Assembly: GCA_013203475.1 (NCBI GenBank)
Contig: JABMNV010000189.1
Coordinates: 19,217-83,216, forward strand
Length of the DNA stretch: 64,000 bases
From: Acidobacteriota bacterium
GTDB taxonomy: Bacteria; Acidobacteriota; Vicinamibacteria; Vicinamibacterales; SCN-69-37
Direction of reading: 5' to 3'
Under the pieces are notes generated by a model, which saw only the letters and a list, made by a program, of their open reading frames with translations, was not told where the DNA came from and ran no database searches. A program made the translations under genes and the position numbers. Positions 9,566 through 58,579 of the stretch are shown one piece after another; position 1 is the first letter of the stretch; each line of letters opens with the position of its first letter.

Positions 9566-9990
9566 CTAGACCACCACGACGGTGGCGGCCGCTTTGTCGT
9601 GCCAGCCCTGTCGGCGGTCGTCCCAGGTGAGCGAGACGTACGTGAGCAATGTGCCGATCCATCCGATAAAGGGAATCAGGCCGAGCAGCATCGGTAGCGC
9701 CCAGCGGCCGGCTGACTTGCCCCACCCTGGCAACTCCCCATTGTCGGCCCGCGTTACGTGAATTCCCATCGCCATCTTGCCGAGGGTCTGCCCTTTGATG
9801 GCGATCAAGGTGACTTCGTAGGCAATCGACAGGATGACGATCGTGAAGAACGTGGCCACAAACGCACTGACCATCGCCGCCAATCCCAAGTCAGTGCCGG
9901 TCGCTCCGGCCGCGAAGCCGCTACCAAAGCCGAGCATGGCAACCATCATCGATCCGGCCGACAGGATCGCCCAATCAATGATTCTGGCTA
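9566..9990 (-). pseudogene. RDD-family membrane protein, 5' end interrupted by IS630
   Basis: The frame stays open upstream of the listed ATG (9949) as LARIIDWAILSAGS (RDD-type R..D motif), right up to the IS boundary at 9990/9991. C-terminus GWHDKAAATVVV is typical of the family. Confidence 0.65.
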
Positions 9991-15611: not shown

Positions 15612-15655
15612 AGTATAGTCTCGTCGGCGACGGCTCCTTCGTTGCTCCCCATCAA

Positions 15656-17197
15656 ATGGCTGACGGTTCGAGTCTCCTCCCCGCCGCAGAATCGGCGCTC
15701 TCGCGTTCCTACTCACGCGAACGCGTAGCCGTGATGACGTTGCTAATCGCGCTGACCGTGGCCAGAAGTGCCGTCTTTGTGGTCTTCGAAGGCTCGAATT
15801 TCGACTCCGATCAGGCGCTGCTCGGCCTCATGTCCAAGCACCTCATCGAGGGGCGGGCATTTCCGGTCTTCACGTATCTTCAGCCGTACATGCTGGGGGT
15901 TGAGGCGTGGATGGCGGTGCCCTTCATGCTGGTCGGCGGCATCACCGTGCCGATGCTCAAGTTGCCGCTGGCGTTGATGAATGTGGCTGTGACCGTTGTG
16001 CTGTTCAGGGCGTTGGAGCGATCGGGTGGATTGCGACCTCTGTTGGCCGCCGTCCCGGCACTGTTCTTCGCGCTGGCGTCGCCAGGCACGTCGACGCTGT
16101 TTCTTGAGACCAGCGGCGGCAATGTCGCCCCGCTCCTGATGGTTGTGCTCCTGTGGATGGCGCGCCGCAAACCGCTGATATTCGGTGCGCTTCTGGCCTT
16201 CGGCGTGCTCCAGCGGGAGTTCGCCATTTATGGCTTTGGCGCGTTTGTAGCGCTTCGATTGCTCGACGGCTCATTCAGGCGCGCCGAGAATTGGCGTCCA
16301 GTCGCGCTCGGTGCCTTGTCCTTTGGAGCGGTGTGGCAGGCCGTCTACCTCGCCAAACAATTCTCCAGTATCGACGGGCCGGGCACGTATGCGGGCTGGT
16401 CCCTCGCCGGCGCCGGCGCCAACGTGTCAGCCCTGCTCAACCGCGTCTGCATCGATACCAACCAACTCGTCTACGGCGTGCAGGCCGTGTTCACCAGCCA
16501 CTTTGGCACGCTCATGGGAGCCAACCCGCGGCCATTGACTGACTTTGGCATCAACAGCCTGCTTTCTCAGGGCGTCTGGTGGATGTGGCCCCTTGTGGGA
16601 GGCAGTTTTGTTCTCATGCTCGGTCGCCTTGCCTGGCTGATGTCCCGTCGGGCCATTCGGCCGTGGGACCCTGCCGTGGAGTTCGCAACGTACCTCTTCC
16701 TGGTCGGTCTGCAGTCCCTCATCGTCTATGCGCTGCTCCGCTGCGGCGTCATTGCTGTGGGAACGATGCGCTACGCGCTTCTCGGACTGTTCGTGGGCGT
16801 GGGAATTGTCACGGCGTTCCTCAAGCTCGAACCGGTGAAGCTGCTGCGCGGTGCTGCGGTCGGCGTGGTCCTCGTGTGGGCGACATTCACGGCGAGCGAC
16901 CACGCGCGACTGGCCTGGCAGTACACGTTTGACCAGCCCGTGAACGGCCGACGGTTGCTGGCCGACCGACTGATCAAAGAAGGCATCAAGTTCGCCTACG
17001 CCGACTTCTGGGACTCACTCAGCATCGTCTATCTGACCAACGAACAGGTCATTGTGGCGTCGACCACCGTCGTGTTCCTTGAGGAATACCAGTGGCTGGT
17101 GGCCGCACGCTCGGAAGAGGCCGTGTGGATCAAGCGAGAACCCTGCCCCGACGGCATTACCGTCGTCGAGGGGCTCTATATCTGCCCGTCGTCTTGA
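15656..17197 (+). CDS. Polytopic membrane protein, GT-C-like (uncharacterised)
   Basis: 513-aa ORF, with an alternative start at 15734 (MTLLIALTV...). More than 10 TM helices and a short soluble C-terminus. Divergent from 12954..15611. Confidence 0.6.
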   Translation: MADGSSLLPAAESALSRSYSRERVAVMTLLIALTVARSAVFVVFEGSNFDSDQALLGLMSKHLIEGRAFPVFTYLQPYMLGVEAWMAVPFMLVGGITVPMLKLPLALMNVAVTVVLFRALERSGGLRPLLAAVPALFFALASPGTSTLFLETSGGNVAPLLMVVLLWMARRKPLIFGALLAFGVLQREFAIYGFGAFVALRLLDGSFRRAENWRPVALGALSFGAVWQAVYLAKQFSSIDGPGTYAGWSLAGAGANVSALLNRVCIDTNQLVYGVQAVFTSHFGTLMGANPRPLTDFGINSLLSQGVWWMWPLVGGSFVLMLGRLAWLMSRRAIRPWDPAVEFATYLFLVGLQSLIVYALLRCGVIAVGTMRYALLGLFVGVGIVTAFLKLEPVKLLRGAAVGVVLVWATFTASDHARLAWQYTFDQPVNGRRLLADRLIKEGIKFAYADFWDSLSIVYLTNEQVIVASTTVVFLEEYQWLVAARSEEAVWIKREPCPDGITVVEGLYICPSS

Positions 17198-19927: not shown

Positions 19928-19985
19928 GATGTATTGACATCATTGTAGGGGACCGAGACCCTGCGCGTCTGATAGCCTTCGCTGC

Positions 19986-21077
19986 ATGCGAATCCGAATC
20001 CCCGGCCTGGTTGGTGTGCTTCTGGTTATCGGCGTTCTCACCGGCGTGCCAACCGCTCAGGCACCAGTTCTGTCGCAGAACGTGGTCGTCATCACGATCG
20101 ACGGGTATCGGTGGCAGGAGATGTTTTCTGGTGCAGCCCTGGAATATTTCAAGCGAGACTCCAACGATCGGCCTGGCGCAATGGAACAGCGGTTCTGGCG
20201 GTCAAGCCCCCATGAGCGACGGGCGGTCCTGACGCCATTCCTGTGGAACGACGTGGCCACCACGGGTCAGATTTTTGGCGACCCCGGTGCTGGCAGTCGT
20301 GCCCACGTGACGAACGGACTGTGGTTTTCGTATCCCGGCTACAACGAGATGTTCGCCGGTGTGGCTGATTCGCGTATCGACAGCAACCGCAAGCTGCCCA
20401 ATCCCAACATCACGGTCCTTGAGTGGCTCAATTCCCGTCCAGGACTGAAGGGCAAAGTCGCCGCGTTTGGTGCGTGGGATGTGCTGCCGTTCATTCTGAA
20501 CACTGAGCGCAGTGGCATTCCTGTCGGGACGGGCTTCAAGCCGGTGCCCGCGCCTTCGACTGATCGCGAGCGGGCGATCAACGAGTTGGCGACTGACCTG
20601 CCGCCGTACTGGGGCTACGGCACTCTTGATGCGCCCATGGTCTACGCGTCGATTGAAGCGCTTCGGACGAGCCAGCCCCGAGTGCTCTACCTCATGCTTG
20701 GCGAAGGTGACGAGTGGGCGCACGAGAACAAGTACGATTTCTACCTCGAGTCGGCGCATCGATCTGACCAGTTCATCAGGCGGATCTGGGACACCCTGCA
20801 ATCGCTGCCCGCCTATGCCGGCAAGACAACCTTGCTGGTGACAACCGATCATGGTCGTGGCGCGACGGTGAAAGACTGGTCCGACCACGGGCGCGACGTG
20901 CCGGCCGCGGAGAACACCTGGTTTGCGGCCATCGGGCCGTCTGTGCCCGCGCTGGGCGTGCGACGCGATGTGACAGTGACGACCGCTCAGTTGGCCGCCA
21001 CGATTGCCGCCGTGATCGGCGAAGACTTCTCGGCCGTCGCGCCCAAGGCCGCGCCGCCTCTGCCGTTGCGCCGCTAG
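19986..21077 (+). CDS. Secreted alkaline-phosphatase-superfamily metalloenzyme
   Basis: Signal peptide, N-terminal VVVITIDGYRWQEMF (metal/nucleophile region) and C-terminal LLVTTDHGRG, both typical of the AP/sulfatase superfamily. Substrate is unknown. Confidence 0.65.
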   Translation: MRIRIPGLVGVLLVIGVLTGVPTAQAPVLSQNVVVITIDGYRWQEMFSGAALEYFKRDSNDRPGAMEQRFWRSSPHERRAVLTPFLWNDVATTGQIFGDPGAGSRAHVTNGLWFSYPGYNEMFAGVADSRIDSNRKLPNPNITVLEWLNSRPGLKGKVAAFGAWDVLPFILNTERSGIPVGTGFKPVPAPSTDRERAINELATDLPPYWGYGTLDAPMVYASIEALRTSQPRVLYLMLGEGDEWAHENKYDFYLESAHRSDQFIRRIWDTLQSLPAYAGKTTLLVTTDHGRGATVKDWSDHGRDVPAAENTWFAAIGPSVPALGVRRDVTVTTAQLAATIAAVIGEDFSAVAPKAAPPLPLRR

Positions 21078-21875
21078 ATGGGGCTTGACCTACAATCACC
21101 GATGATGACTCCTCGCTCTCACGGACGCCTATCGGACAAAATCGCCGTTGTCACCGGAGGCTCCCGTGGAATCGGTCGCGCGATCGTCGACAAATTCGCC
21201 GCAGAAGGTGCCACGGTCGTGAACCTGGACCTTGGCGAACCTGCGCCTGATCTTCCTGCGCTCGCTCTCTCCACGTTCATCCGAACCGACGTCACGAAGG
21301 AAGTCGAGGTGCAGTCGGCGATGGCGGCTGTCGTCGAGGCGCATGGCCGCATCGACATTTTGGTGAACAACGCAGGCGTCAACGCGTACTTCGACGCAGT
21401 CACCATGACTGAGGCGCAGTGGGACAGTGTGTTTGCCGTCGACCTCAAAGGCGCGTGGCTGTGCGCCAAACATGTGTTGCCCAACATGAAGGAACGCCGC
21501 GCGGGTTCGATCGTGAACATTGCGTCCATTCACGCGTCATTGACGATGGCCGGGATGTTTCCGTATGCGGCCGCCAAGTCTGGACTGGTGGGACTGACGC
21601 GCAGCCTGGCGCTCGACTATGCCCCTTTGGGTATTCGTGTGAATGCGGTGTCACCCGGTTGGACGCGGACCCATCTGGTTGAGGAGTGGTTCAGCCTGCA
21701 GCCCGATCCGGCGGCCGCTGAATCCAGCATCATGACTGCCCATCCGATGGGCCGAATCGCGACGCCGGACGAAGTGGCGAACCTCGTCGCATTTGTCGCT
21801 TCCGACGAAGCGTCGGCCATGACCGGCGCGTCTCTGGCTGCCGATTGCGGTCTCGGCATCCAGTTCGCAACGTAA
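21078..21875 (+). CDS. Short-chain dehydrogenase/reductase (SDR)
   Basis: TGGSRGIGRAI (cofactor-binding), NNAG, and YAAAK (catalytic YxxxK). Alternative start at 21102. Confidence 0.85.
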   Translation: MGLDLQSPMMTPRSHGRLSDKIAVVTGGSRGIGRAIVDKFAAEGATVVNLDLGEPAPDLPALALSTFIRTDVTKEVEVQSAMAAVVEAHGRIDILVNNAGVNAYFDAVTMTEAQWDSVFAVDLKGAWLCAKHVLPNMKERRAGSIVNIASIHASLTMAGMFPYAAAKSGLVGLTRSLALDYAPLGIRVNAVSPGWTRTHLVEEWFSLQPDPAAAESSIMTAHPMGRIATPDEVANLVAFVASDEASAMTGASLAADCGLGIQFAT

Positions 21876-22808: not shown

Positions 22809-24271
22809 TGATTCATTCAATTAATCCGCGGACCGGAGACCAACGTCAGCCTGTTCAGGAATCGTCGCCCCTGGACGTTCACGCCGCAGTCGAACGCGCA
22901 GAGGCAGCCGCGCGGGGCTATGCCCAGTTGCCGTTAGCCACACGTGCGGCGTTTCTCAGAGCCGCGGCCGACGCCCTCGAGGCGAATCGTGTCGCCATCG
23001 TCGAGACCGCCGACTTCGAGACAGGCCTTGGGCCTGCTCGGTTCAATAGCGAATTAGGCCGAACGACGGGCCAGCTTCGGGCGTTTGCCGACGTGGTGGA
23101 AAAGGGGAGTTTTCAGGGTGTCATCCACACGCCCGCGGATCCGGCTGCCACGCCTCCGTGTCCAGACCTCCGGCGTCTGCTCATTCCCATTGGGCCCGTC
23201 GGCGTCTTTACGCCCAGCAACTTTCCACTCGCGTTCGGCGTGGCCGGTGGCGATACGGCGTCGGCGCTGGCCGCAGGATGCACGGTCGTCGTGAAGGGCC
23301 ATCCGTCTCACCCCAATTCGTCGGCCCTGACCGCGCAGGCGTTTGTTGCCGCTGCCACACAGGTGGGAGCGCCCGATGACACGTTGACGCTGGTGCAGGG
23401 ACGTGCGCCCGAAGTGTCTCAGGCTCTGGTGAATGCCCCGGGCATCCGTGCGATTGCGTTCACCGGATCTGAGAGGGTTGGACGACTGCTGTACGACCTG
23501 GCCGCCGCGCGCGCAGAGCCAGTGCCGTTTTACGGCGAGCTGGGTAGTCTCAATCCGGTGTTCGTTGGAGCTGCGGCCGCGTCGGCGCGAGGTGCTGACA
23601 TTGCCAAGGGACTTGTCGCATCAATGACGTTGGGTTCGGGCCAGTTCTGTACAAAGCCCGGCGTCGTGTTTGTGCCGACCGGTCCGACAGGCGACGCGGT
23701 GGTGGCGTCGATGGTCGCCGCCGTCGCGACGCTTGAGCCTGCCGTCCTGCTCAACGAAGGCCTGCAGACCTCGCTCAACTCAAAGATCGCCGCCAGTCGC
23801 GGCGTCAGCGGTGTGAGCGAGTCGGTGGCCACAGTCCAGGTGCCGGACGCAGGATGCTTTGCTGCGCCACGGATGTTTGTTGTGGACGTGCGAACCTTCT
23901 TCGCGAGCCCGGCCCTTCGCGAAGAACACTTCGGTCCGGTCTCAATCGTCGTCCGATGCCATGCCGACGAAATGGCCGTCGCGGCGACCAACTTTGATGG
24001 CCAGTTGACCGCCACCATTCATGCCGACGCCGGCGATCTTGAGTGGGCGACCAAACTGCTTCCGGTGCTGGTGGACAAGGCCGGACGGATTGTCTGGAAC
24101 GGATATCCGACTGGCGTCTCGGTCGTGCCGGCCATGCACCATGGCGGTCCGTATCCGGCCAGCACCAACTCGTTGCACACGTCGGTGGGGACGACGGCCA
24201 TTCGGCGGTTCTTGCGGCCGGTCACGTTTCAGGACGTTCCGGAGGCGCTGCTGCCGTCCGCGCTCACCTAG
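22808..24271 (+). CDS. NAD(P)+-dependent aldehyde dehydrogenase, alpha-ketoglutaric semialdehyde dehydrogenase-like
   Basis: 487 aa. Catalytic Glu in YGELGSLNP and Cys in GSGQFCTKPG, with the KGHPSHP motif. Length and N-terminus are typical of the KGSADH subgroup. Confidence 0.85.
   Translation: MIHSINPRTGDQRQPVQESSPLDVHAAVERAEAAARGYAQLPLATRAAFLRAAADALEANRVAIVETADFETGLGPARFNSELGRTTGQLRAFADVVEKGSFQGVIHTPADPAATPPCPDLRRLLIPIGPVGVFTPSNFPLAFGVAGGDTASALAAGCTVVVKGHPSHPNSSALTAQAFVAAATQVGAPDDTLTLVQGRAPEVSQALVNAPGIRAIAFTGSERVGRLLYDLAAARAEPVPFYGELGSLNPVFVGAAAASARGADIAKGLVASMTLGSGQFCTKPGVVFVPTGPTGDAVVASMVAAVATLEPAVLLNEGLQTSLNSKIAASRGVSGVSESVATVQVPDAGCFAAPRMFVVDVRTFFASPALREEHFGPVSIVVRCHADEMAVAATNFDGQLTATIHADAGDLEWATKLLPVLVDKAGRIVWNGYPTGVSVVPAMHHGGPYPASTNSLHTSVGTTAIRRFLRPVTFQDVPEALLPSALT
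23325..23376 (+). repeat. Source copy of a 52-nt perfect direct repeat (inside the ALDH gene)
   Basis: ccctgaccgcgcaggcgtttgttgccgctgccacacaggtgggagcgcccga is identical to 25389-25440. It encodes LTAQAFVAAATQVGAP in both places. Confidence 0.95.
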
Positions 24272-24275
24272 ACAG

Positions 24276-26316
24276 ATGGCCCGCACAAGAACTGCTTGGG
24301 TGTGGTTCGCGCCGCTGATGCTCGTGCCGGGGCTCGCTGCGCAGCAGGACGCCGGTCCAGGGACCGGAGTGATTCTGGGCAAGGTCATTAATGCGGAGAC
24401 CAAGTCGCCGCTGTCTGGGGTCTTGGTTGAGGTTGGGCCAGGGCGACGCCTCCGCGCCCTGACCGACAGCGAGGGACGCTATGTGTTCCGCCTGCTGCCA
24501 CCGGGTACCTAGTCGATTGCCGCCTCAACGGGCGGGAACGGCTTTGAGCCGTCCGGGTTTCTGCCGGCCAGCGCCGCGCCAACGGTCCGCTCCAGGATCT
24601 GACACTTCCCGCCGGTGGCGTCGTCGCCGATGCTGTGATTTCGCTCTGGAAGGGCGCCACGTTCGATGGAACGGTCTTCGACGAACGCAATGAACCGGTC
24701 GTCGGCATGGTTGTGTCCGCCGTACGACGGACGAGTGATGGCGTGTTGACCAGCGGTCCGACGACGCGCACGGATGATCGCGGTGCGTTCCACATCAGTG
24801 CGTTGTCGCCTGGTGCGTCTGTCGTGGTCGTGCCTCAAACCCAGGTGCTGCTCCCGGCCTCCACCGCGATCAGCCCCACATCCGATCCGCTGTTGAGCCG
24901 ACAGCTCGCAGCTGCAGGGGCGCCACCGCCCAGCCAGTCGGGCGTGGTCTTCGGGGGAGTGGTGTCGTCATCGACTGCCCCGGTGGCGGGCAATGCCCTG
25001 CAGGCAGCCAGTCAGAGTCGACATGTCTACCAATCGACATTTCATCCTGCCGCCACCACTCTTGAGAAGGCCAGGGTCGTCATGGTGACGAGCGGCGAGG
25101 CTGTGACCGGTGTCGATGTTCAGTTGGCGCCGGTCTCAGCGGTATCGGTCAGCGGAACGTTGCTGGACGTCGGCATGCCGGTCGCGAACTTCGGTGTGCG
25201 ACTGCTGCCGGCTGATACCAAGGACGGGTCAGAGGTGCTGGAGGTCTCGTGGACCGCGACCGATGTCTTGGGCAAATTCACCTTCCCGCTTGTGCCTGAG
25301 GGGCAGTATCGACTCTCTGCGCAACGACGGACGCGGGTGCCGTCGGCCGTGGCACCAAACGGCGCGGTGACGTATGCCGACCCGCCGTCCCTGACCGCGC
25401 AGGCGTTTGTTGCCGCTGCCACACAGGTGGGAGCGCCCGAAGTCGGTTCGACGATCAATCCCAAGGCCCCGGAGGTCAACCACTGACGAACGTTATGATT
25501 TCGGTGGTGAATACCCGCACGCGAAGCACGTGGACCAGCCCCGGCATGGTGCGCCCTGACGCCAATGGACACTTCAGCCTGTCGTCGTTTCCCGAAGGCG
25601 AGTACGCCTTCATTGGTCGCGGCACCGACAGCACCACTCCGGGCACGCGCGACATGCCCCTGTACGCTGAAGCACGGTTCATCATGGCTGGCGACGACCT
25701 GTCCGGCATCATCATTCAGTTCGAACAAGGTGTCTCGGTCGGAGGTCAGGTCGTCGTCGCCGAGGGCGACCCCGTTCCCAACGGCATGCAACTGCGCTTG
25801 ATGCCCGTCGGCAGCATTCCTGGATCGGCCGCCCCACCTGCCTCTCAGAGTGTACGCGATGATGGATCCTTCGAGTTCACGGGCGTGGCACCTGGGCGTT
25901 ATCGCCTGACGGCGATCGGGACCACCAATCTCACGCTCCGTTCAGCGCTCATCGGTGACACCGACACGCTTGATGACGCCTCCGAGGTGATTCCGCGCGG
26001 CGACGTGACCGGCATGCGCGTGGTGCTCACCTCGCGTCCGACGCAGATTGCGGGCACGTTGTTCGATGGCCTGGGCCGACCGGCGCCCGAGTACGCCGTG
26101 GTCGTCTTTTCGACCGACCGGGCACATTGGGCCAACGCTCCCCGGCGTATGACCGGCCTGGTGAAGTTGGACTCGCGTGGGCAATACCGCATCACAGGGC
26201 TGCCCGCGGGCACGTACTACTTGGCCGCCGTCACCGACGCAGAGCCGGCGGAGTTGTCCGATCCGCTGTTCCTTGAGCAACTGGCCACCGCCGCCGAGGT
26301 CAGTGACAGTCAGTAG
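24276..26316 (+). pseudogene. Carboxypeptidase-regulatory-like (CarboxypepD_reg) multi-domain secreted protein, with multiple lesions
   Basis: Signal peptide plus VILGKVINAETKSPLSGVLVEV...TDSEGRYVFRLLPPGT. Lesions in order: in-frame TAG (24510-12), frameshift (~24550-24566), ORF 24635..25486, a 52/59-nt ectopic insert, then ORF 25495..26316 with further GxYxL domains. Confidence 0.75.
25389..25440 (+). repeat. Ectopic copy of the 52-nt ALDH gene segment, inserted in the CarboxypepD_reg pseudogene
   Basis: Perfect identity to 23325-23376. The 7 nt to the left are 4/7 identical. Confidence 0.95.
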
Positions 26317-26795: not shown

Positions 26796-27086
26796 TCAGG
26801 TGAGATACCGCTCAATCTCGAGCGCGCCGTGCAACACCCCGAGCACATCGATGTCGCGACTTGGCCTGATGAGATATGCGATGCGGTAATGACCGTAGAG
26901 CAGAATCCGAATATCACGATCGTCTCGGTAGCGATGACCGACCTCCGGGAAGGTCAACAGGATCTGGGCTCGCTGGTGAATGGCAGTCACGATCCGGTGG
27001 GCGGCGTCCGCATTGTTGGTTGCGATGTACTCGTGAATATCCTTCAACCAGCGCTGGGCTTCAGCCGTCCAGACTATTTCCGCCAC
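26796..27086 (-). CDS. parE: ParE/RelE-family toxin
   Basis: MAEIVWTAEAQRWLKDIHEYIATNNADAAHRIVTAIHQRAQILLTFPEVGHRYRDDRDIRILLYGHYRIAYLI...IDVLGVLHGALEIERYL. Confidence 0.85.
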   Translation of the reverse strand: MAEIVWTAEAQRWLKDIHEYIATNNADAAHRIVTAIHQRAQILLTFPEVGHRYRDDRDIRILLYGHYRIAYLIRPSRDIDVLGVLHGALEIERYLT

Positions 27087-27271
27087 GACTCGATGGTCCG
27101 CTTCATCGTGTCGTGCGACACCGTCCGACCGGCGTCGGCGTCCGCGAGCCCGCGGTCGACCATTCGGGCGAAGGCCAGTTCGCGAAGCAATTCATCGTAC
27201 GAACTGTCATCGGGTTGTTTGTCGATCAGTTCGATCATCTGGGCTTTCGGGGTGGCTACCTGTCCGCTCAT
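27074..27271 (-). CDS. Cognate antitoxin (65 aa)
   Basis: ATG at 27271 (MSGQVATPKAQMIELIDKQPDDSSYDELLRELAFARMVDRGLADADAGRTVSHDTMKRTIESWRK). Overlaps the parE start by 13 nt. Confidence 0.65.
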   Translation of the reverse strand: MSGQVATPKAQMIELIDKQPDDSSYDELLRELAFARMVDRGLADADAGRTVSHDTMKRTIESWRK

Positions 27272-27351
27272 GCCGACATTGTAGCCCGCACCACGACTCA
27301 GCGCAGGCCCCCCAAGGGTCGAAGAAAGGCACCGAATTCCAAGGCTGTACC

Positions 27352-27480
27352 GGTGCTCCCCCGCGATCTGCAACCCGCGAATATCAAGGTCCGAGCCGAT
27401 GGCACCGTCGACAAGCGCAGCGACTTGTGGGCATTCGCCGTCGTGCTGCTCGAGATGCTGACGGGCCGTCGCGTCGTCGA
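27352..27480 (+). pseudogene. Ser/Thr protein kinase remnant (catalytic loop to helix F, internally deleted)
   Basis: VLPRDLQPANIKVRADGTV (HRDLKPxN-type loop) is joined directly to SDLWAFAVVLLEMLTGRR. The DFG...APE segment is missing, with no N- or C-terminal parts. Confidence 0.5.
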
Positions 27481-27503
27481 CGTGCCCGTCGGTCAACCGC
27501 CCG

Positions 27504-29351
27504 TCACCGACCGTGCGAGATCCGCTTGGACTGCACGTTGCCCCCGTCCAGGTCGCCGCTCACCTGAGCGACGACCTGACCGGCTGCATCACGAATCACA
27601 ATAGACACCGACTCGCGATGGCGACCCGGTTCACCTTCGTCGGATGCAAACACCTCAAACGTGTAGCCCGACTGGCCGTTCCACTGACCATTCCCCGAGA
27701 ACAGCACGGTGTCAATCTGCGGCGTCTGTCGCGACCGGTCACGGCCCGGCTGAATCGTCGCGTCGTCGCTGAAAGCCACAAACGTCACCGCCGTTGACCG
27801 GAACTTGTCGTCCTTCGGCTTCTGCTTCGACGACTTGCCCTTATCTGAATCCTTCGAGCTCTTCGAGTTCTTCGCGCTCTTGGAACTCTTATTGGACGAC
27901 GACCCGCCCTTGGAGGACACGTCGCCGTAGTCCACCGTCAGCGACAGGCTGCCGCGTTCGTCGCCCGACGCGCGTTCCCGCACATCGAACTTGAAGTCGT
28001 ACTTGTCGGCGCTATTCTTGATAAAGCCGTCGCCATGCATCTCACCTGGCGTCGTCACATCGGTGACCGTCACCGAAAACATCGACGTCGCCGTGTTGCC
28101 GGCGGCATCCGTCGCCGAGCACGTCACGGTCGATACACCAATCGGGAACGTCTCCCCCGACACCGGGCTGCACGTCGCCACACCCGCGCCATCGATCACA
28201 TCGTCAGTGACCGGTGCGTCGTAGCTCACCGCGACCCCGGCCGCACTGACCGCTTCCCCACCCGCAACATCAGCGTGAGCCGCAATGGTCGGTGCGGTTG
28301 TGTCGGCCACCGTGACCGTAAACATCGTTGACGACGAGTTGCCGGCGTTGTCGGTCGCCACGCAGGTCACCACATGCGCGCCCATGGCAAGTGCTGTCCC
28401 GGACACCGGGCTGCAGGCGATCGACAAGACACCAGAGTCGTCATCCACGGCCGTCGGCATCTGGCAACTGACCAGCGTCAGTGCACCGGTCGCCTCGACC
28501 GAGGACGACGCCGGCATGCCGCTGATGACTGGGCCGACAGAGTCAAACCCCTTGGTGTCGTCAGTCGGAAAGCGATCGTCGCCATCGAGCACGCCGTCGC
28601 CATCGGCGTTGAAGGGGTCCAGGCCCGCCGCCACTTCTTCCTCATTAGCGAGGCCATCGCCATCGGCGTCAGCATCAATACAGTCCGGCGTGCCGTCGTG
28701 GTCGAGGTCGGCGGCCAACCCCGTGACCGGATCCACCGAGCACAGCGCCTGCAGGTGGTCGAGCTGGCCGTCGTTGCCGATGTCGCCGTCGCACGCGTCG
28801 CCGATTCCATCCGCGTCCACATCCACCTGATCCGGGTTCTTGATGAAGTGACAGTTGTCCGTCACATCAAGGACCCCATCGTGGTCATCGTCATCGGACA
28901 GCGAGTCGTCGATGCCGTCACCATTGTCATCCGCATCACAGACATCGCCCAGGCCGTCGCGGTCGAAGTCGCCCTGGTCGGGGTTGGCGATCGCCGGGCA
29001 GTTATCGAACAGGTCACGCACGTCGTCCTGATCCTGATCCGGCGGCGACACGACCGTCACCTCGATGGGCTGGCCAACCGTCACCGTCTGTGTCCCCGAC
29101 GCACCCGTCACGGTGACGCTGCCCGTGTCGGACTCATTGACGATGCTGTAGGTGGTCATCCCGTTGGCGGTCGACACTTCGTCAAGGACGACCTGGCCGC
29201 CGTTCGAGATGGTCAAGAACGACGTACCGTCTTCGGTCAGACGCACCCGCACCTCGCCTTCTTTCGCACGAAGATGCAGCGACCCGCAGAAGAACGAGTA
29301 CGAGCCCGCCTCCGAGTCGACCACGTAGCGGCCACACGCCATGATGGTCAA
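27504..29351 (-). CDS. Adhesin segment E: TSP3 repeat array, two HYR domains, Lys/Ser-rich tract, C-terminal beta domain
   Basis: More than 10 DxDxDGxxDxxD units. Two HYR units (...VVTCVATDNAGNSSSTMFTVTV and ...TVTCSATDAAGNTATSMFSVTV). SSKGGSSSNKSSKSAKNSKSSKDSDKGKSSKQKPKDDK at ~27800-27925. Terminates in TGA. Confidence 0.7.
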   Translation of the reverse strand: MTIMACGRYVVDSEAGSYSFFCGSLHLRAKEGEVRVRLTEDGTSFLTISNGGQVVLDEVSTANGMTTYSIVNESDTGSVTVTGASGTQTVTVGQPIEVTVVSPPDQDQDDVRDLFDNCPAIANPDQGDFDRDGLGDVCDADDNGDGIDDSLSDDDDHDGVLDVTDNCHFIKNPDQVDVDADGIGDACDGDIGNDGQLDHLQALCSVDPVTGLAADLDHDGTPDCIDADADGDGLANEEEVAAGLDPFNADGDGVLDGDDRFPTDDTKGFDSVGPVISGMPASSSVEATGALTLVSCQMPTAVDDDSGVLSIACSPVSGTALAMGAHVVTCVATDNAGNSSSTMFTVTVADTTAPTIAAHADVAGGEAVSAAGVAVSYDAPVTDDVIDGAGVATCSPVSGETFPIGVSTVTCSATDAAGNTATSMFSVTVTDVTTPGEMHGDGFIKNSADKYDFKFDVRERASGDERGSLSLTVDYGDVSSKGGSSSNKSSKSAKNSKSSKDSDKGKSSKQKPKDDKFRSTAVTFVAFSDDATIQPGRDRSRQTPQIDTVLFSGNGQWNGQSGYTFEVFASDEGEPGRHRESVSIVIRDAAGQVVAQVSGDLDGGNVQSKRISHGR

Positions 29352-29366
29352 CGGGTCACTTGAGCC

Positions 29367-30302
29367 CTAGGCCACCGACACGTTGGTGTATCCGGGCTCG
29401 TCGACGTAGGTGTACCCGTTGCAACCACCCCAGACGCTCTTGTTGGAACAGTAGCGGTACGAGTAGGGCTCGGTGTTGTAGAGCCGGTAGAGCGACGTCC
29501 TGGCGCCGAACATGACTTCTCCGTTGACACTGATGCCTCTGGTGCCCCACTTGGCGCAGTAGGTCACGGTGTAGTACACGCGGCTCCATCCCCTGGTGTA
29601 GTACGTCTGGTAGCTGCGCCACGAGGTGCACGCGGTCTCGGTGCCGTAGCCGCTGAAGCGCGTATCCAGATTGGATCGCGGATTCCAGTCGATCGCGTTG
29701 TCGATGTGGTCACCGTCAATATCCGGATCGTTTACGTCCAGGAACCAGTCATTATCGTCGTTTGTGTCGTCGCAGTCAGCCCACCCGTCGCCGTCGTCAT
29801 CGTCGTCGCAGAGGTTGCCGAGGCCGTCACTGTCGGTGTCGAGCTGATCAGCGTTGGCGATCGCCGGACAATTGTCGACCGGGTCGATCGTGCAGTCGCC
29901 GTCCGTATCGGGCGGCGTGACCGTCACGGTGAAGGTCGCTGATGCGCTGTTGAGCGCCTCGTCCTGCGCCGTGCACGTGACGAGCGTGACCCCCACCGGG
30001 AAGAGGCTTCCTGATGCGGGCGCGCAAGTCACCGGTGCCGGCCCACTGAGGTCATCAACAGCCGACGGCGTGGAGAATGCGACCTCCACGCCTGCGGACG
30101 TCGGGGCGACCACGACCACATCGGTCGTGGCCTCAAACACCGGCGGCGTCGAGTCGGCCACGCACACCGTGTCGGTGGTCGATGTGGCCGACGCGGCAGT
30201 GAAGTAGCCTGCGTCGCAGACCGAGGCGACCGTGCAGGACGTGGCGCCTTCGGTAGAGCTGAACGTGCCGGCTTCGCAGACTGTGGCGGCGGCCGCGCCC
30301 AC
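29367..30302 (-). CDS. Adhesin segment D: Cys-rich repeats, one HYR domain, TSP type-3 Ca-binding repeats, Tyr/Trp-rich beta domain
   Basis: VCEAGTFSSTEGATSC, the HYR-like stretch VAFSTPSAVDDLSGPAPVTCAPASGSLFPVGVTLVTCTAQDEALNSASATFTVTV, and DNCPAIANADQLDTDSDGLGNLCDDDDDGDG. Ends at TAG 29367-69. Confidence 0.7.
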   Translation of the reverse strand: MGAAAATVCEAGTFSSTEGATSCTVASVCDAGYFTAASATSTTDTVCVADSTPPVFEATTDVVVVAPTSAGVEVAFSTPSAVDDLSGPAPVTCAPASGSLFPVGVTLVTCTAQDEALNSASATFTVTVTPPDTDGDCTIDPVDNCPAIANADQLDTDSDGLGNLCDDDDDGDGWADCDDTNDDNDWFLDVNDPDIDGDHIDNAIDWNPRSNLDTRFSGYGTETACTSWRSYQTYYTRGWSRVYYTVTYCAKWGTRGISVNGEVMFGARTSLYRLYNTEPYSYRYCSNKSVWGGCNGYTYVDEPGYTNVSVA

Positions 30303-31751
30303 CTAAGCCACGTAGGTGCCAGCCGGCGCCAGCAGACATGACGTCTGCCCCTGGTTCGGCTGATACGTCCCGAGAGCACAGGCACTGGCAGTTGCCGCGC
30401 CTTCGATATCCACGTAGGTACCGGCCGACGAGGGCTGACAGGCCGCCGCACCGTGGATATCCGAGAACGTGCCCACCGCGCAGGCGATGGCTTCGGTCGC
30501 GCCAGCCACAGGCACGTAGGTGCCCGGCGACGCGGGCGTGCACTCGGTGTCGGAGGGTGACGCGAGGAACGTCCCGGCGGGGCAGTGGACCGCAGGTGCG
30601 GTCGTGTCCACGAATCCGTCGATGTGAATGTCGTCGACCATCACGAAGGCCGAACCCGTATTGAACGGCGGCATGAGCACAAGGCGCACAGGCCCGGCCG
30701 CGACCAGATAGGGCGTGGCAGACAAGTCAAACGACCGGTCACAGTCGGGATAGGTCGTGCAATTGGACACAACGGTTCCAACACGTGTCGAAACACCGCC
30801 CTGGACGGCGATGACGTCCACTGGCAGATTCGCGTAGTCGTTATTGAGAATTCGAACCGAGAATCCGGTCATCGACCAGGCAGACGACGAGTTCAGATCG
30901 ACAAACAGCTGGGTCAGGCCGGGCGCGCCGATTGGACCGAGGCCACGAGAGATGAAGACGTTGGTCGACCACAGCTGCACGCCGTGGTCTCCGAAACCGC
31001 CAACAATGCCATCGGCGTCCGTCCATCCGAAGGTTCCGGACATGAAGGCCTCCTGCAGCGTGGAGGCGGGCGCCGAGAGCGGCCCTACCCACCCATTCGT
31101 CTGAGCCATGACGTTCTCAAAGTCGAACTCGGCCAGTCGCCGCACAAGCGGGACACACGCGGCCGCACCTTCGATGGACGTGAAGCCCTCCGGGCAGGAA
31201 ATCGGCTCCGTCGCTCCCCCTTCCGGAACGTATGTACCCGCTGGCGCTGGCGTGCACGCCAGGTCGCCCGGGTTAGCCAGGTAGGAACCCGGGTCACACA
31301 CTGGCGTCACGTTGATTGTGACCGTTGCGTCCTGGCTGCTCGCCGCGCCGTCGAAGGCCCGATAGATAAATGAATCGGTGCCCGAGAAGCCAGCGGTCGG
31401 TGTGTAGACGAACCCGCCATCGGACGACACCGAGACGGTGCCGTGCTGCGGGTCGGTCATCTTCACTGCCGTCAACGGCCCGCCGGAGGTCGAGACGTCG
31501 TTGAGCAGCACGCCGTGTGTCGCTGCGAGCGCCGCCACTTCATCAGCACTCAACGCGGCATCGTAGATGCGCACTTCGTCGAGGAGACCTTCAAAGTCGC
31601 CCGAGCCACCCGGGTGGCGACCGAGGGTGATATCTGCACTTCCCAGTTCCGGCTGGTAGGTCACGTCGGCCGAATTCACCAGCACGCCATCGGCGTAGGT
31701 GTTGGCTGTGGTGCCGTCGTACGTCATGGCCACGTGCATCCAGCGGCCCAC
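30303..31751 (-). CDS. Adhesin segment C: end of the LamG domain, cadherin/Ig-like module, beta-rich domain, Cys-rich ephrin-receptor-like (CxxGTY) repeats
   Basis: GRWMHVAMTYDGTTANTYADGVLV...LDEVRIYDAALSADEVAAL, GFSGTDSFIYRAFDG, and repeats such as CTPAPAGTYVPEGGATEPISCPEGF. Ends at TAG 30303-05 inside a repeat unit. Confidence 0.7.
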   Translation of the reverse strand: MGRWMHVAMTYDGTTANTYADGVLVNSADVTYQPELGSADITLGRHPGGSGDFEGLLDEVRIYDAALSADEVAALAATHGVLLNDVSTSGGPLTAVKMTDPQHGTVSVSSDGGFVYTPTAGFSGTDSFIYRAFDGAASSQDATVTINVTPVCDPGSYLANPGDLACTPAPAGTYVPEGGATEPISCPEGFTSIEGAAACVPLVRRLAEFDFENVMAQTNGWVGPLSAPASTLQEAFMSGTFGWTDADGIVGGFGDHGVQLWSTNVFISRGLGPIGAPGLTQLFVDLNSSSAWSMTGFSVRILNNDYANLPVDVIAVQGGVSTRVGTVVSNCTTYPDCDRSFDLSATPYLVAAGPVRLVLMPPFNTGSAFVMVDDIHIDGFVDTTAPAVHCPAGTFLASPSDTECTPASPGTYVPVAGATEAIACAVGTFSDIHGAAACQPSSAGTYVDIEGAATASACALGTYQPNQGQTSCLLAPAGTYVA

Positions 31752-31895
31752 CGGATCCGGTGTCAGGGCCGGCGAGTACCAGCAGTCACCCTGTGCCTGA
31801 CCACTCAGTAAGCAGAGCTGGGTGTTCTGCCCCTGGCCACTGCCAAAGCTCGTGACGCTCGACTGCCACGCGTCACCCGCGCCGCTCGCACTGTG

Positions 31896-33020
31896 CTAGG
31901 TGACGATGACCGGATTCTGGGGCACGGTGAGCTTGGTCCAGTACGCCACCGTGAACTGGTGCGTCTGCAGACTGGCGCTGTTGGAAATGGTGATGAAGTT
32001 GCCGCCACCGCGCAGGTCCAGACCGCGTCCCAGCACGCCGTCCACGATCGCGCCGCCGGTCGGCACACCATGGTTGTCGTAGCCCGAGCTATCTCGCGCC
32101 GTGCCATCGTCGAAGTTCCAGTGGCCCACCAGGTTATTGGTGGCCGTGGGCGTTACTACCGACAGCGCCGCGAGGTCCGAGGCCGTCAGCACGCGGTTGT
32201 AGATACGCGCTTCGTCGATGTGCGCGTCGAGGCTGCCGAACGCCGCGTGACGCGGCCCGAATTTGGCGATCACGCCGTGGTTCCACGTGTGCATATTGCC
32301 GCTGGTGGAGTCGCCGATCTGGATGCCGTCGCGATACCCACGAATGCGCACGAGGCCGCCACCGAGGTCTTCATAGGTGATGGCCACCTGCACCAACTCG
32401 CCGGTCGTCGACTCCTGGAAGCCCGGGTTGAAGTCTTGCGTTCGGTTGAAGAAGTCGCTGCTGGCCATCCACCGATGCGACTGGCGCTCACCGTAGACGA
32501 TGGCATCGAAGCCGTGGACATCGACCTGCTCGATGGAGAGCGGGCTGCCGGTCTGCACATCGAGGTTGTCGAGGCGCAGCCACGCGACCATTGTCTTGCT
32601 GCCAAGCGCCGGACCCGCGTACGCGCCGCTCAGGGCCGCCTGCCCGGCGTCGAGGTTCAACGAACCGTTGACCACGCTGGCGCCGTTCTGCAGGGTGAGG
32701 TCACCGAAATGGCCGGTCAGGTCGCGCACTTCCGCGCCCGACTCGAACGTCCACTGGCCAACCAGGCCACCCAACTCGGGCTGGATGTGGTGGTGATGCG
32801 CACGCGGCGGGCCGTCTGCGGTGCGGCAAATGCGTGGTCCAGCCATTGATAGTCCGAGGTGTTGCCTGACCACGTAAAGGCCAGGATACCGTCGAGCGAG
32901 ACCTGATGAACGGTGTTCCCAGCCGGCGACTGCGACACCAGCGCGTGGATGCCCGACAGCTCCTGCGGGCTGCCGAAATCCACCTCGATCCAGTGAATCG
33001 GGTGTGCTCCGGCGTTCCAC
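31896..33020 (-). CDS. Adhesin segment B: two LamG/ConA-like lectin domains (real part starts ~32765)
   Basis: LVGQWTFESGAEVRDLTGHFGDLTLQNGA...AHIDEARIYNRVLTASDLAALS, then LVGHWNFDDGTARDSSGYDNHG...FTVAYWTKL. Ends at TAG 31896-98 in mid-domain. Confidence 0.7.
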   Translation of the reverse strand: MERRSTPDSLDRGGFRQPAGAVGHPRAGVAVAGWEHRSSGLARRYPGLYVVRQHLGLSMAGPRICRTADGPPRAHHHHIQPELGGLVGQWTFESGAEVRDLTGHFGDLTLQNGASVVNGSLNLDAGQAALSGAYAGPALGSKTMVAWLRLDNLDVQTGSPLSIEQVDVHGFDAIVYGERQSHRWMASSDFFNRTQDFNPGFQESTTGELVQVAITYEDLGGGLVRIRGYRDGIQIGDSTSGNMHTWNHGVIAKFGPRHAAFGSLDAHIDEARIYNRVLTASDLAALSVVTPTATNNLVGHWNFDDGTARDSSGYDNHGVPTGGAIVDGVLGRGLDLRGGGNFITISNSASLQTHQFTVAYWTKLTVPQNPVIVT

Positions 33021-33238
33021 AACGTGGCCGGATTACCGTCAAAGGCCATCGCCGGACCTGCACCCGCATAGCTGGAACTGGCACTAAAGGTGGTCCCAGC
33101 CGGCAATGTGAGGGTCGTCGACTTGGTCGCGACAGTCGGCGTGGTGGCCAGTAGAAACCCTGTCACCAGGATTAGAACGGGCAGATTCGCAATTGGCTTC
33201 AGGTCTTTCCGCAGGTTTTTCAGTAGCTGAGTGTTCAT
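32717..33238 (-). CDS. Adhesin segment A: signal peptide plus F5/8 type C (discoidin) domain
   Basis: MNTQLLKNLRKDLKPIANLPVLILVTGFLLA, then AFDGNPATLWNAG..HWIEVDFG...ARRVRITTTSSPSWVAW. After W the true frame switches (-1) into segment B. Confidence 0.7.
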   Translation of the reverse strand: MNTQLLKNLRKDLKPIANLPVLILVTGFLLATTPTVATKSTTLTLPAGTTFSASSSYAGAGPAMAFDGNPATLWNAGAHPIHWIEVDFGSPQELSGIHALVSQSPAGNTVHQVSLDGILAFTWSGNTSDYQWLDHAFAAPQTARRVRITTTSSPSWVAWLASGRSSRARKCAT

Positions 33239-33367: not shown

Positions 33368-33496
33368 TTGAGTCAACAGGACGGCGAACGCGAGAAGATG
33401 GCGCCGGTGTGCGAGGAGTTCGGGATTTCGCGCAAGACCGGGTACAAGATCTTCGAACGATACAAGGACACCGGCGTCCGGGGGCCTGCATCGTGA
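33368..33496 (+). mobile_element. IS481/IS3-like transposase N-terminal HTH fragment
   Basis: LSQQDGEREKMAPVCEEFGISRKTGYKIFERYKDTGVRG matches the CxEFGISRKTGYKW(L)xRY HTH block. It stops after 42 codons with no catalytic domain. Confidence 0.5.
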
Positions 33497-42837: not shown

Positions 42838-43622
42838 TGGTTGTCGAGTCGATGTGGTCGAACGTCTGGATGACGCTGTGGGTGAGCCTGCTCATTCAGG
42901 CGGTGTTCTTCGCCTTTGCCGCCACGTTTCGCACCGACAAGGTGACGGACCTGTCGTACGGGCTGACCTTTATCATTCTTGCGGTCGTCCTGCTGACCCA
43001 GAGTGATACGGCGGGCCTGGCCGGAATAGTGTTGGCCGGGATGGTGGTGCTCTGGGGGGTGCGCCTGGCGGGCTACCTGCTGTCTCGTATCCTCGCGATC
43101 GGTCGTGACGCACGGTTCGATGGTGTACGCGAACGGTTCTGGCCCTTCTTCCTCTTCTGGCTGGGGCAGGGCGTCGCCGTGTGGGTCATCATGTTGCCTG
43201 TCACGATGTGGTTTTCCCGCCCGGGGCCCTGGACGACGTGGATGTGGGTGGGTGGGGCGATCTGGGCGCTTGGCCTGGTGATCGAAACCATTTCCGACGC
43301 ACAGAAGTTCGTCGCCAAACAGGCGCCCGGCGGCAACGATCGCTGGATGACCACTGGTTTGTGGAAGTACAGTCGGCATCCGAACTACTTCGGCGAGTTG
43401 CTGTGTTGGTGGGGCGTGTTCGTGTTCGCGGCGGGCAGCTATGCTGGCGCGGCCTGGATCGGCGTGACCGGTCCGGTCGCGATCACCTGGATCCTGTTAC
43501 GCGTGACGGGTATTCCGACACTTGAGGCCAGTGCGGCGAAGAAGTGGGGGACCAGCGAGGGCTATCAGGCACACGTCCAGCGCACGAGCCGCCTGATCCC
43601 CTGGCCCCCGCGGGCGCACTAG
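42834..43622 (+). CDS. DUF1295-family membrane protein (steroid-5-alpha-reductase/ICMT-like fold)
   Basis: Multi-TM, with LWKYSRHPNYFGELLCWWGVF as the family signature. Confidence 0.85.
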   Translation: MMVVESMWSNVWMTLWVSLLIQAVFFAFAATFRTDKVTDLSYGLTFIILAVVLLTQSDTAGLAGIVLAGMVVLWGVRLAGYLLSRILAIGRDARFDGVRERFWPFFLFWLGQGVAVWVIMLPVTMWFSRPGPWTTWMWVGGAIWALGLVIETISDAQKFVAKQAPGGNDRWMTTGLWKYSRHPNYFGELLCWWGVFVFAAGSYAGAAWIGVTGPVAITWILLRVTGIPTLEASAAKKWGTSEGYQAHVQRTSRLIPWPPRAH

Positions 43623-45112
43623 TTCGTCCCAGAAATGGGTTCGTAGCTCCACTCCGCCAGATACCGCTTCATCCGCAACTTGCGGACGGTGTTGTCGGTA
43701 CTCATGTAGCGGATGGTTCCGAAGATGGGGCGCTCGGGGCCCCACGGGCGGTCGTAACGCCCCAGCGTCCAGCAGTAGCCCGAATAGGAATTGGGATTCC
43801 GGCCATCCAGCGCCAGCCGGTCCATGATGGCCTTCATCGTCTCCAACGCCTCTTCCGGCGAACGCGTCCACTCCAGAATCTTCTTTCCCCAGACCATGCG
43901 CAGGTAGTTGTCACACGTGCCCGTGGCAGCCAGTTGCCGCTGCGCCGCGTTCCACACGCGGTCGTGCGTTCCCGCTGCCATGAAGGTGTCGAGGTCGTAG
44001 GTGTAGGCGCGTTCGTCACTTGCATGCGCATCGAGCGTGGCCCGCGCCCAGGCCGGCAACGACGAGTACTTGTCGTAGTCATCAGGCCGCAACGCACACA
44101 TGTTGAACCCGAGCTCCCGCCACGTGATGAGCTGATCAAGAAAACCCTCCGCCGACGCGGACGCGCCCCACCATCCGGCACGCTGGCCCTTCTTGCCTGG
44201 CCCCAAGCGTCGGCTGGTCCAGCGCTCGGCGGTCATGACGGCCTCAAAGACCGCGTGCGACGTAATGTGCCCGAAGTGCAGATATGGCGACAACCCGCTG
44301 GCCATCTCATCGTCTGGATGCGAATGTCCGTCGGCGTAGTGCGGGAGTCGTTCGCGAATGAAGCGATCAAGCGTCTGCTGCGCGGCCTTCGGGCCACCTT
44401 TGATCGGCGCCACTCCGACGGAATGATCGAGCGGCAGCGAAGCCAAAAGCGCGGCTGGGTTGTCAAGCGTCGCAAGCGTTGTCGACGGCCAGCGGTCGAT
44501 CACATCCTGCCGCAGCGCCTTGAGGCGCGGCAGGCCGGTCCAGTCGATGACAGACGCCGGCCAGTCCGACAAATGATCGCGGAAGGAACCCTGCAGATAG
44601 GAACGGAACGAATAGGCGGTGAGGAAGACCTTCGTCGTGGCGCGCATCGGCAGGACGCCATTGGAATCGACGGCATCCAGGCGAACGTCCAGTGCCTGAA
44701 GCCGACGACCGGCCGCCGCCACCATCCGCGGCAGGAAGAATGACGGGAAGTCGTCTGTCACCACCAGACACGCGTCGGCCGCCAGCGCTTCCAGCAACCC
44801 CTTCCCTGCTCCTCGCGCCGGCTCCACATAGGGGATATAGGTGACGTTTGTTCCTTCCAGTGCACGCGCGTGATCGGCCATGCCATCGATGACGAATCGA
44901 TGGAGCCTGTCGCTCGCCCACGGATAGTCGCACCGGAGCGCTTCGAGAATGACCAGCGGCTTGCCCCACGCACACGCCTGTTCCACAGCATGCTGGAGCG
45001 CGAAGTTGGACGACACGCGCCGGTACGCCGTCATCCAATAGAGGACGAACGCCTCGTCTGGACGAGCCGATGCGGTGTTGACCGGACGGATGCGAACGAC
45101 AGGTACAGGCAT
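43619..45112 (-). CDS. phr: Class II CPD photolyase (deoxyribodipyrimidine photo-lyase)
   Basis: N-terminus FVLYWMTAYRRVSSNFALQHA (the YWMxxxxRxxxNxAL class II hallmark). C-terminus MVWGKKILEWTRSPEEALETMKAIMDRLALDGRNPNSYSGYCWTLG..DRPWGPERPIFGTIRYMS. Confidence 0.85.
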   Translation of the reverse strand: MPVPVVRIRPVNTASARPDEAFVLYWMTAYRRVSSNFALQHAVEQACAWGKPLVILEALRCDYPWASDRLHRFVIDGMADHARALEGTNVTYIPYVEPARGAGKGLLEALAADACLVVTDDFPSFFLPRMVAAAGRRLQALDVRLDAVDSNGVLPMRATTKVFLTAYSFRSYLQGSFRDHLSDWPASVIDWTGLPRLKALRQDVIDRWPSTTLATLDNPAALLASLPLDHSVGVAPIKGGPKAAQQTLDRFIRERLPHYADGHSHPDDEMASGLSPYLHFGHITSHAVFEAVMTAERWTSRRLGPGKKGQRAGWWGASASAEGFLDQLITWRELGFNMCALRPDDYDKYSSLPAWARATLDAHASDERAYTYDLDTFMAAGTHDRVWNAAQRQLAATGTCDNYLRMVWGKKILEWTRSPEEALETMKAIMDRLALDGRNPNSYSGYCWTLGRYDRPWGPERPIFGTIRYMSTDNTVRKLRMKRYLAEWSYEPISGTN

Positions 45113-45124
45113 GTCTGTCAGCGC

Positions 45125-45754
45125 CTACCCCAGCGGCAGCCACATCAGGATGAGCACATCCCACAGCAGATGCGCGACCAGCGCCGGCGCCACACTGCCG
45201 GTCACCGCCCTCAGCGCGCTCCAGACAAGACCGCAACCAAACGCCACCAGCACCAGCACCGGTGACCCAATCGGCGCGTGCGCCAGGGCGTAGACCACGG
45301 CGATGGCCACCACACCGACCAGCATTCCTGGCCACGACCGATCCGCGAATCTCAGCCGATCGGCGATCGCGCCCTGCACAACACCACGCCACACCAGTTC
45401 CTCGCCGATAACCACGGGGACGAACGCGATCCACGTCACGACCGCCGCCGGCGCGCGGAATGACGCGTAGAGACTGGCCGTATCGGACGCAATCGAGGGC
45501 ACGGCGCTGAGCACCATCGGATAGAGCACATACGTGGCCGCACTCATGGCGCCGCCAACCGCAAGGCCAATCGCCACCAGCGACATCGTCGGCCGCAACG
45601 CGCTCCGCACTCCCGAAAGGTCCCTCGCCGCGATGAGCACTCCCAGGATGACCGCCACACTGCCAACGGCCACCCAGATGCCAAACGTCCCGCTGAGCGC
45701 CGCCGCCGCGGTCCACGCCACGACGCAGATGACGGCAAGCATCGTGGACTTCAT
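45125..45754 (-). CDS. CPBP-family intramembrane glutamic endopeptidase (CAAX-protease-like)
   Basis: EELVWRGVVQ, YALAHAP and VAHLLWDVL motifs in a 6-TM protein. Start ATG 45754 overlaps the upstream stop. Confidence 0.8.
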   Translation of the reverse strand: MKSTMLAVICVVAWTAAAALSGTFGIWVAVGSVAVILGVLIAARDLSGVRSALRPTMSLVAIGLAVGGAMSAATYVLYPMVLSAVPSIASDTASLYASFRAPAAVVTWIAFVPVVIGEELVWRGVVQGAIADRLRFADRSWPGMLVGVVAIAVVYALAHAPIGSPVLVLVAFGCGLVWSALRAVTGSVAPALVAHLLWDVLILMWLPLG

Positions 45755-50013: not shown

Positions 50014-50127
50014 AAGCCTGTCCTTTGGTTGAGCGTGGCCGGTCGCTAGCGAACTTGTACTGAAACGACCGGAGTCTACCCGAATTCTCCTTGGCGTTGA
50101 ATCGGGTGCGGATGACCACGTCCTGGC

Positions 50128-58571: not shown

Positions 58572-58579
58572 TTCTATAG

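Follow-up and report, generated by a model that had tools for sequence, protein, structure and literature searches.

A disrupted gene for a giant multi-domain surface protein, very probably a recent pseudogene, in an uncultured Acidobacteriota population

The locus and its reading frame

We analyzed a 64-kb stretch of genome from an uncultured Acidobacteriota bacterium (contig JABMNV010000189.1 of the metagenome-assembled genome (MAG) GCA_013203475.1, hereafter the window, to which all positions refer). At its center is a minus-strand locus in which a long adhesin-like reading frame is interrupted by three in-frame amber (TAG) codons and lies directly downstream of a small open reading frame (ORF) with a discoidin domain. 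The features of the locus, in the direction of transcription, are as follows.

32717..33238, minus: discoidin (F5/8 type C) ORF, 173 amino acids, with an ATG start, a GGGAG Shine-Dalgarno motif and a signal peptide, in another frame than the adhesin
32760..32768, minus: deletion or recombination junction with a 9-nt microhomology, GGCCTGGTT
27504..32768, minus: adhesin remnant of ~1,755 codons, 5'-truncated, with three TAG codons, lacking its own start codon and signal peptide
32160..32768, minus: LamG domain 1 (Pfam Laminin_G_3)
32592..32640, minus: 49-bp stretch within LamG domain 1, deleted with a frameshift in one strain (L025, JGI 3300074305)
31521..32138, minus: LamG domain 2 (Laminin_G_3), cut by TAG1
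31896..31898, minus: TAG1, nonsense codon within LamG domain 2
31302..31508, minus: Big_9/cadherin-like Ig domain (Pfam)
31149-31301, minus: shorter block of the ephrin-receptor-like Cys repeats
30609..31139, minus: conserved domain of ~177 amino acids (RLAEFDFENV...IDG), no Pfam match, common to the homologues P0001 and P0002
30153..30590, minus: ephrin-receptor-like/TNFR-like Cys-rich repeats (Pfam), cut by TAG2
30303..30305, minus: TAG2, nonsense codon within an ephrin-receptor-like Cys-rich repeat
29910..30152, minus: HYR domain 1 (Pfam)
29679-29909 and 28542-29039, minus: two blocks of TSP3-type Ca-binding repeats (within 28542..29909)
29040-29678, minus: region between the TSP3 blocks, no Pfam match, holding TAG3
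29367..29369, minus: TAG3, nonsense codon separating a Cys/Trp/Tyr-rich from a beta-rich segment
28053..28541, minus: HYR domains 2 and 3 (Pfam)
27507..28052, minus: conserved C-terminal domain, common to the homologues P0135 and P0226
27804-27920, minus: Lys/Ser-rich insertion in the C-terminal domain, recognized from sequence
27504..27506, minus: native TGA of the ancestral gene, with the C-terminal domain end matched in P0135 and P0226

The minus-strand frame 27504..33032 contained exactly three internal stops, all TAG, and ended in TGA; translation from 33020 to 27504 gave 1,839 codons including these three stops and the terminal one. This bears out the original prediction, made from the sequence alone, of a single frame cut by three amber codons, as well as its reading of a GTG directly 3' of TAG2. 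Each of the four segments had a GC content at third codon positions (GC3) between 0.76 and 0.84 (0.76-0.84), as is usual for coding sequence given the 63% GC of the window. Given that P0135 (...SGNIQSERIHH), which has the same C-terminal domain, stops at the equivalent place, the final TGA represents the native end of the gene; P0226 (...GNVQSTRIPHERGVAGRG) ends a few residues later.

Pfam matches comprised F5_F8_type_C in the 173-amino-acid ORF and two Laminin_G_3 domains, a Big_9/cadherin-like domain, Ephrin_rec_like, three HYR domains and TSP_3 in the adhesin frame. Together with the Lys/Ser-rich tract, this is the domain content that had been predicted, save that the expected more than 15 TSP3 repeats were reduced to ~9-13 Ca-binding motifs by a motif count. 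The prediction that domains run through the stops also held: with stops bridged, the second Laminin_G_3 match covered profile positions 2-151/151 (100.6 bits) across TAG1, and one Ephrin_rec_like match (1-48/48) spanned TAG2.

Loss of the adhesin 5' end and damage to the discoidin gene

The discoidin ORF had the signal peptide and the good Shine-Dalgarno motif attributed to it from the start, and it is the truncated form of an independent gene. Its product is native to ...SPSWVAW and then continues with a 14-amino-acid out-of-frame tail (LASGRSSRARKCAT) contributed by the adhesin remnant; its F5_F8_type_C match stops at 2-122/127, meaning that the domain lacks its last beta-strand. P0199 (167 amino acids), the representative of the 90%-identity cluster to which the 173-amino-acid ORF belongs, is identical to ...SPSWVAW but then reads FEIQILGC followed by a stop. 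This intact allele ends ...SPSWVAWFEIQILGC, and its domain match (2-127/127) extends to the end of the profile. The contig that encodes P0199 (L031, ENA ERZ1283804), from another strain of this species, carries the same upstream cupin/helix-turn-helix gene as the window and is 99.6% identical to it from 34276 down to 32760, past which the two are unrelated: L031 continues with a TGA, a GC-rich hairpin, and then DNA absent from the window. Since the P0199 match reaches the profile end and L031 has its own stop, the discoidin ORF was once a complete stand-alone gene. The ~1,900-amino-acid product including a discoidin domain that had been reconstructed is thus wrong for this species, in which discoidin was a separate 167-amino-acid gene, as L031 shows.

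Neither the window nor the other loci compared contained a match to the ~200 bp that follow the L031 hairpin (L031 1518-1740) or to the 220-bp L031 tail as a whole, and the DNA beyond this tail could be an intact adhesin gene. The window's version of the L031 neighbor protein was carried only by L028. The discoidin domain in the middle of P0001 resembles the stand-alone one (window 32769-33238), and both end ...RVRITTTSSPSWVAW; this likeness points to module shuffling, in which the adhesin family and the small gene may have exchanged segments.

At the junction, GGCCTGGTT is common to the 3' end of the discoidin gene (GTG GCC TGG TTc, ...V A W F) and to the first codons of LamG domain 1 (GGC CTG GTT, G L V). 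The corresponding DNA of P0001 reads GGCCTGGTC at its GLVGHW motif, which is GLVGQWTF in the window. In both P0001 and P0003, the signal peptide lies within a few residues before the G/E-LVGHWTF motif, and the motif is the first homologous residue in the window. Because homologues place the signal peptide right before the motif that now sits at the junction, the start codon and signal peptide of the adhesin have been lost. On the simplest reading, the junction would be a microhomology-mediated deletion or the product of another illegitimate recombination. The -1 shift that had been claimed near 32755-32770 therefore exists as a formal offset, but it marks a recombination or deletion junction rather than a one-base frameshift within one gene. 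Programmed -1 frameshifting was considered and rejected: the site reads G GCC TGG TTG, no slippery heptamer (X XXY YYZ) was present at the junction, and the upstream ORF is a separate gene with its own stop in L031.

Homologues and strain variation at the lesions

Homologues were uninterrupted where the window frame is broken. P0002 (1,097 amino acids, ending at a contig edge) was 79% identical over 497 amino acids, and P0001 (1,718 amino acids, partial, from a Vicinamibacterales MAG) was 54% identical over 945 aligned residues. An exhaustive HMMER search around TAG3 added P0226 (1,689 amino acids) and P0227 (1,599 amino acids), both contiguous through that site. P0226 shares the whole module downstream of TAG3 together with the C-terminal domain. 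What P0135 has in common with the window is the Cys repeats, one HYR domain, and this C-terminal domain. The alignment of orthologs that had been suggested as a check showed Lys at TAG1 (AAG in P0002, Lys in P0001), a variable residue at TAG2 (Thr/Leu/Ser in the homologous repeats of P0001 and P0002), and Pro at TAG3 (in P0226). None of the homologues listed had the architecture split into separate genes; P0001, P0002, P0135 and P0226 are single contiguous genes.

No close orthologue of the C-terminal half was found, and scans of genome and metagenome contigs gave distant LamG relatives only, with no closer orthologue. A protein query spanning TAG1, run against 5.8 billion proteins, listed no near-identical intact allele, and the 478-amino-acid fragment was the only high-identity match listed; this search also missed the 292-amino-acid fragment known to be in the collection, such that short partial alleles may escape it.

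The pattern of 173-, 292-, 478-, 311- and 612-amino-acid fragments recurred across assemblies. The last, 612-amino-acid fragment was present on 21 contigs, which represent at least 8 samples; at least 22 contigs carried the 173-amino-acid ORF with its exact out-of-frame tail. Sources included ENA ERZ23486318 and ERZ23486328, JGI 3300032736, 3300074305 and 3300078395, NCBI GCA_041294365.1, and, in Logan, ERR2206758/59/76, SRR28106091 and ERR13967255. No publication turned up in a literature search on the run and sample accessions. These contigs were 99.8-100% identical to the window with scattered single-nucleotide polymorphisms (SNPs), and every covering contig kept the stops (TAG1, 8/8; TAG2, 9/9; TAG3, 10/10). 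The junction was likewise present in every contig covering the join, with the exception of L031. The source of the window is a metagenome-assembled genome, and stops and frame change could in principle be sequencing or assembly errors confined to it. Given that independently assembled contigs from at least 8 samples, which came through separate pipelines (ENA, JGI, Logan, NCBI) and have SNPs of their own, carry these TAGs and this junction too, the lesions are not sequencing errors, and we consider an artefact to have practically no probability. The stops and the frame change, for which read support had been proposed as a check, are thereby supported by assembled contigs. Additionally, the 49-bp deletion in strain L025 points to a decay that may still be going on.

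We conclude that the locus is very probably a recent pseudogene, whose intact ancestor encoded a giant, secreted, multi-domain surface protein of a Ca-binding, lectin-type kind. The discoidin gene is collaterally damaged. Four lesions, namely the junction and the three TAG codons, are shown by the data and are fixed in the population that was sampled. In the history that we propose, an illegitimate recombination or deletion at the 9-nt microhomology would have joined the remnants of the two genes one base out of register. This event would have removed the last 8 codons of the discoidin gene, its stop, its terminator, and DNA of unspecified length between the genes, as well as the promoter-proximal region, start codon and signal peptide of the adhesin. 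Three independent nonsense substitutions to TAG would have followed the loss of the start and export signal, with the 49-bp frameshifting deletion as a fifth lesion in one strain. The cell would no longer make the full-length product, and fragments, if translated at all, would stay in the cytoplasm and be partly misfolded. Recent pseudogenization, which the original prediction had favored as the parsimonious reading, is supported by uninterrupted homologues, domains cut by stops, reproducible lesions, and further decay in one strain.

Suppression, separate products and the age of the lesions

An alternative is that the amber codons are read by a suppressor tRNA, either an allo-tRNA with a CUA/UUA anticodon or tRNA-Pyl, and that the long product is still made, perhaps conditionally. 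Acidobacteria allo-tRNAs may act as missense or nonsense suppressors and often lie beside toxin-antitoxin loci (Mukai et al., 2017; PMC5389517), and a ParE toxin gene is found just downstream of the adhesin TGA. In favor of suppression, the premature stops are amber without exception, nothing else interrupts the frame over 5.3 kb, and amino-acid change is not detectably accelerated; a suppressor tRNA, if real, would account for a 5.3-kb frame without other decay. However, suppression could not cure the gene, because start and signal peptide are missing from the frame after the junction, and the discoidin ORF upstream is out of frame and a separate gene. Homologues have Lys, Thr/Leu/Ser and Pro at the three sites, and therefore no single inserted amino acid would restore all of them. 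TAG also serves as an ordinary terminator here: a further 36 genes, called in the interval from 22.8 to 61.2 kb, ended in TAG (11, or 31%), TGA (20) or TAA (5), and the TAG-terminated neighbors include an M13 peptidase with the C-terminus ...IHIW. Apart from the adhesin, no gene in the window was interrupted by an in-frame stop. The statement that every premature stop is amber is thus true, but trivially so, and three of three lies within chance. In a codon census of the adhesin gene, 59-64% of single-base routes to a stop gave TAG (main precursors TCG 77, CAG 57, TAC 40, GAG 29, TGG 27 and AAG 25), and the probability of three amber stops in three by chance was 0.21-0.26. All three stops would be amber because ~60% of the possible nonsense substitutions in this GC3-rich gene lead to TAG; all-amber stops are therefore weak evidence for recoding, which serves as a control for GC-rich genomes. 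ARAGORN detected no tRNA in the 64-kb window, and Rfam gave no match at gathering thresholds in the window; from 22 to 36 kb, it gave no tRNA-like match even at E<=1. The additional frameshifting deletion in one strain also speaks against a product that is still made. Amber read-through, which had been raised as worth excluding, is thus unsupported, and we regard suppression as very unlikely. We place at the same low level the conditional form, in which the ambers would be tolerated or used through an allo-tRNA-type suppressor, and in certain conditions a start located internally or upstream would give rise to long products.

Two further ideas on the amber codons were set aside. Window-wide recoding was rejected after all long frames opened by reading TAG, TGA or TAA as sense had been listed: the members of the other TAG-joined ORF pairs (43619-45817, 49111-52209, 19938-21875 and 15218-17197) are distinct genes, each of which has its own start and a native C-terminus. 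Dcm-type CCWGG deamination, an idea from sequence context for the origin of TAG3 (GCC CAG GGC to GCC TAG GGC), misfits TAG1 and TAG2.

The fragments could also be expressed deliberately as modules, translated separately by termination-reinitiation (for example, at TAG2-GTG) or from internal starts. Gene callers do predict 4-5 ORFs at the locus, some of which are named proteins in public records (NQW04968.1, NQW04971.1), and a GTG does adjoin TAG2. On the other hand, TAG1 and TAG2 cut the LamG and Cys-repeat domains and leave half-domains, and the first in-frame start after TAG1 lies at least 48 codons downstream, inside LamG domain 2. No Shine-Dalgarno motif precedes the internal starts, a start adjacent to a stop occurs at TAG2 only, and none of the adhesin fragments has a signal peptide, although all of their domains are of extracellular types. 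The same architecture is known only as single contiguous genes, in the four homologues named above. Termination-reinitiation, also put forward originally, thus fails on fragments that lack ribosome-binding and export signals, two of which begin or end inside domains, and we consider separate products very unlikely. A promoter and terminator scan of the region gave counts no higher than in shuffled sequence.

Several observations weigh against a dead gene or at least fail to reveal one. The ratio of nonsynonymous to synonymous substitution rates (dN/dS), proposed at the outset as a check, was computed against P0002 over 528 almost gap-free codons after TAG1, and was 0.18 (dN 0.14, dS 0.80), with no sign of relaxed constraint and low power for a young pseudogene. 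A relative-rate test with P0001 as outgroup counted 11 vs. 21 unique amino-acid changes without an excess in the window lineage, and the corresponding ratio of polymorphisms within the population (pN/pS) was 0.60 in the remnant vs. 0.54 in flanking genes, again with low power. These three tests cannot separate a recently dead gene from one still under constraint. Moreover, three nonsense substitutions imply ~2% average neutral divergence, more than seen; this tension is mild and the numbers are small, but it is the main argument against a pseudogene. At such divergence, some fixed frameshifting indels might be expected, yet none is fixed within the 5.3-kb frame. Under the preferred reading of a recent pseudogene, a dN/dS still at 0.18 downstream of TAG1 indicates that inactivation is recent, and the rest of the frame is intact because inactivation is young.

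Neighboring genes and comparison with known systems

Other features of the neighborhood were observed alongside. Directly upstream of the discoidin gene, a 42-amino-acid ORF (33368-33496, plus strand) matches only the N-terminal domain of a transposase (HTH_23/HTH_28, E 3e-5), and this remnant indicates that the neighborhood had been rearranged before. The ParE toxin gene (96 amino acids; within 26796-27496, minus strand) overlaps a preceding 140-amino-acid ORF without Pfam match, which may be the ParE antitoxin; the pair starts 8 bp past the adhesin TGA. A 53-58-nt stretch is near-identical at 23319-23376 and 25383-25440 (plus strand), in an aldehyde dehydrogenase gene and a CarboxypepD_reg-like gene; it is in frame in both, encodes SLTAQAFVAAATQVGAP, and both copies are also present in strain L024. 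By its appearance, this stretch looks native to the dehydrogenase and would have been copied into the CarboxypepD_reg-like gene. An IS630-family-like transposase (9566-11134, minus strand) consists of contiguous same-frame ORFs split by TGA, and its N-terminal helix-turn-helix part runs into out-of-frame-looking sequence, which suggests that the gene may be frameshifted or subject to programmed frameshifting. Directly behind it, without a change of frame, comes an ORF for an RDD-like membrane protein, which the insertion may have clipped. Two adjacent GDSL-lipase genes (57594-59569, minus strand) had HYR matches, and HYR modules therefore occur in other secreted proteins of this genome.

The value of these results lies mostly in correct annotation. 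The 4-5 public 'genes' at the locus are pieces of one dead gene and its damaged neighbor, and it would be an error to list these ORFs among functional discoidin, LamG or HYR proteins. In addition, the locus provides a documented example of a microhomology-mediated deletion junction and a datable case of gene loss in an uncultured Acidobacteriota population, in which the upstream gene still segregates for an ancestral-type allele (L031).

LamG-like jellyroll/HYR/TSP3 multi-domain secreted proteins occur in Acidobacteriota and other phyla, with a putative family function. The N-terminal half of the window protein (LamG-LamG-Big_9-Cys repeats-RLAEF domain-Cys repeats) has 70-79% identity to P0002 and 54% to P0001. 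Its C-terminal module (TSP3-unknown domain-TSP3-HYR-C-terminal domain) is arranged as in P0226, and the HYR and C-terminal domains as in P0135. In contrast to these relatives, no listed protein joins both halves in the window's order, and the discoidin domain is internal in P0001, whereas in the window species it belongs, now or formerly, to a separate small gene. With the Acidobacteria allo-tRNA systems (PMC5389517), the locus has in common the phylum, a toxin-antitoxin neighbor, and amber-only stops; it differs in that the window holds no allo-tRNA, TAG is a common normal terminator, and the gene is without a start.

The closest parallel is with ordinary pseudogenes derived from bacterial genes for large surface proteins or adhesins. 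As in these, several independent disabling lesions have accumulated at sites where homologues are intact, domains are truncated, start and export signal are lost, and the lesions are fixed in the population while more decay segregates. Unlike ordinary pseudogenes, the frame has no fixed internal frameshift besides the 5' junction, and the case is very young, with codon usage, GC3 and amino-acid conservation still as in a working gene.

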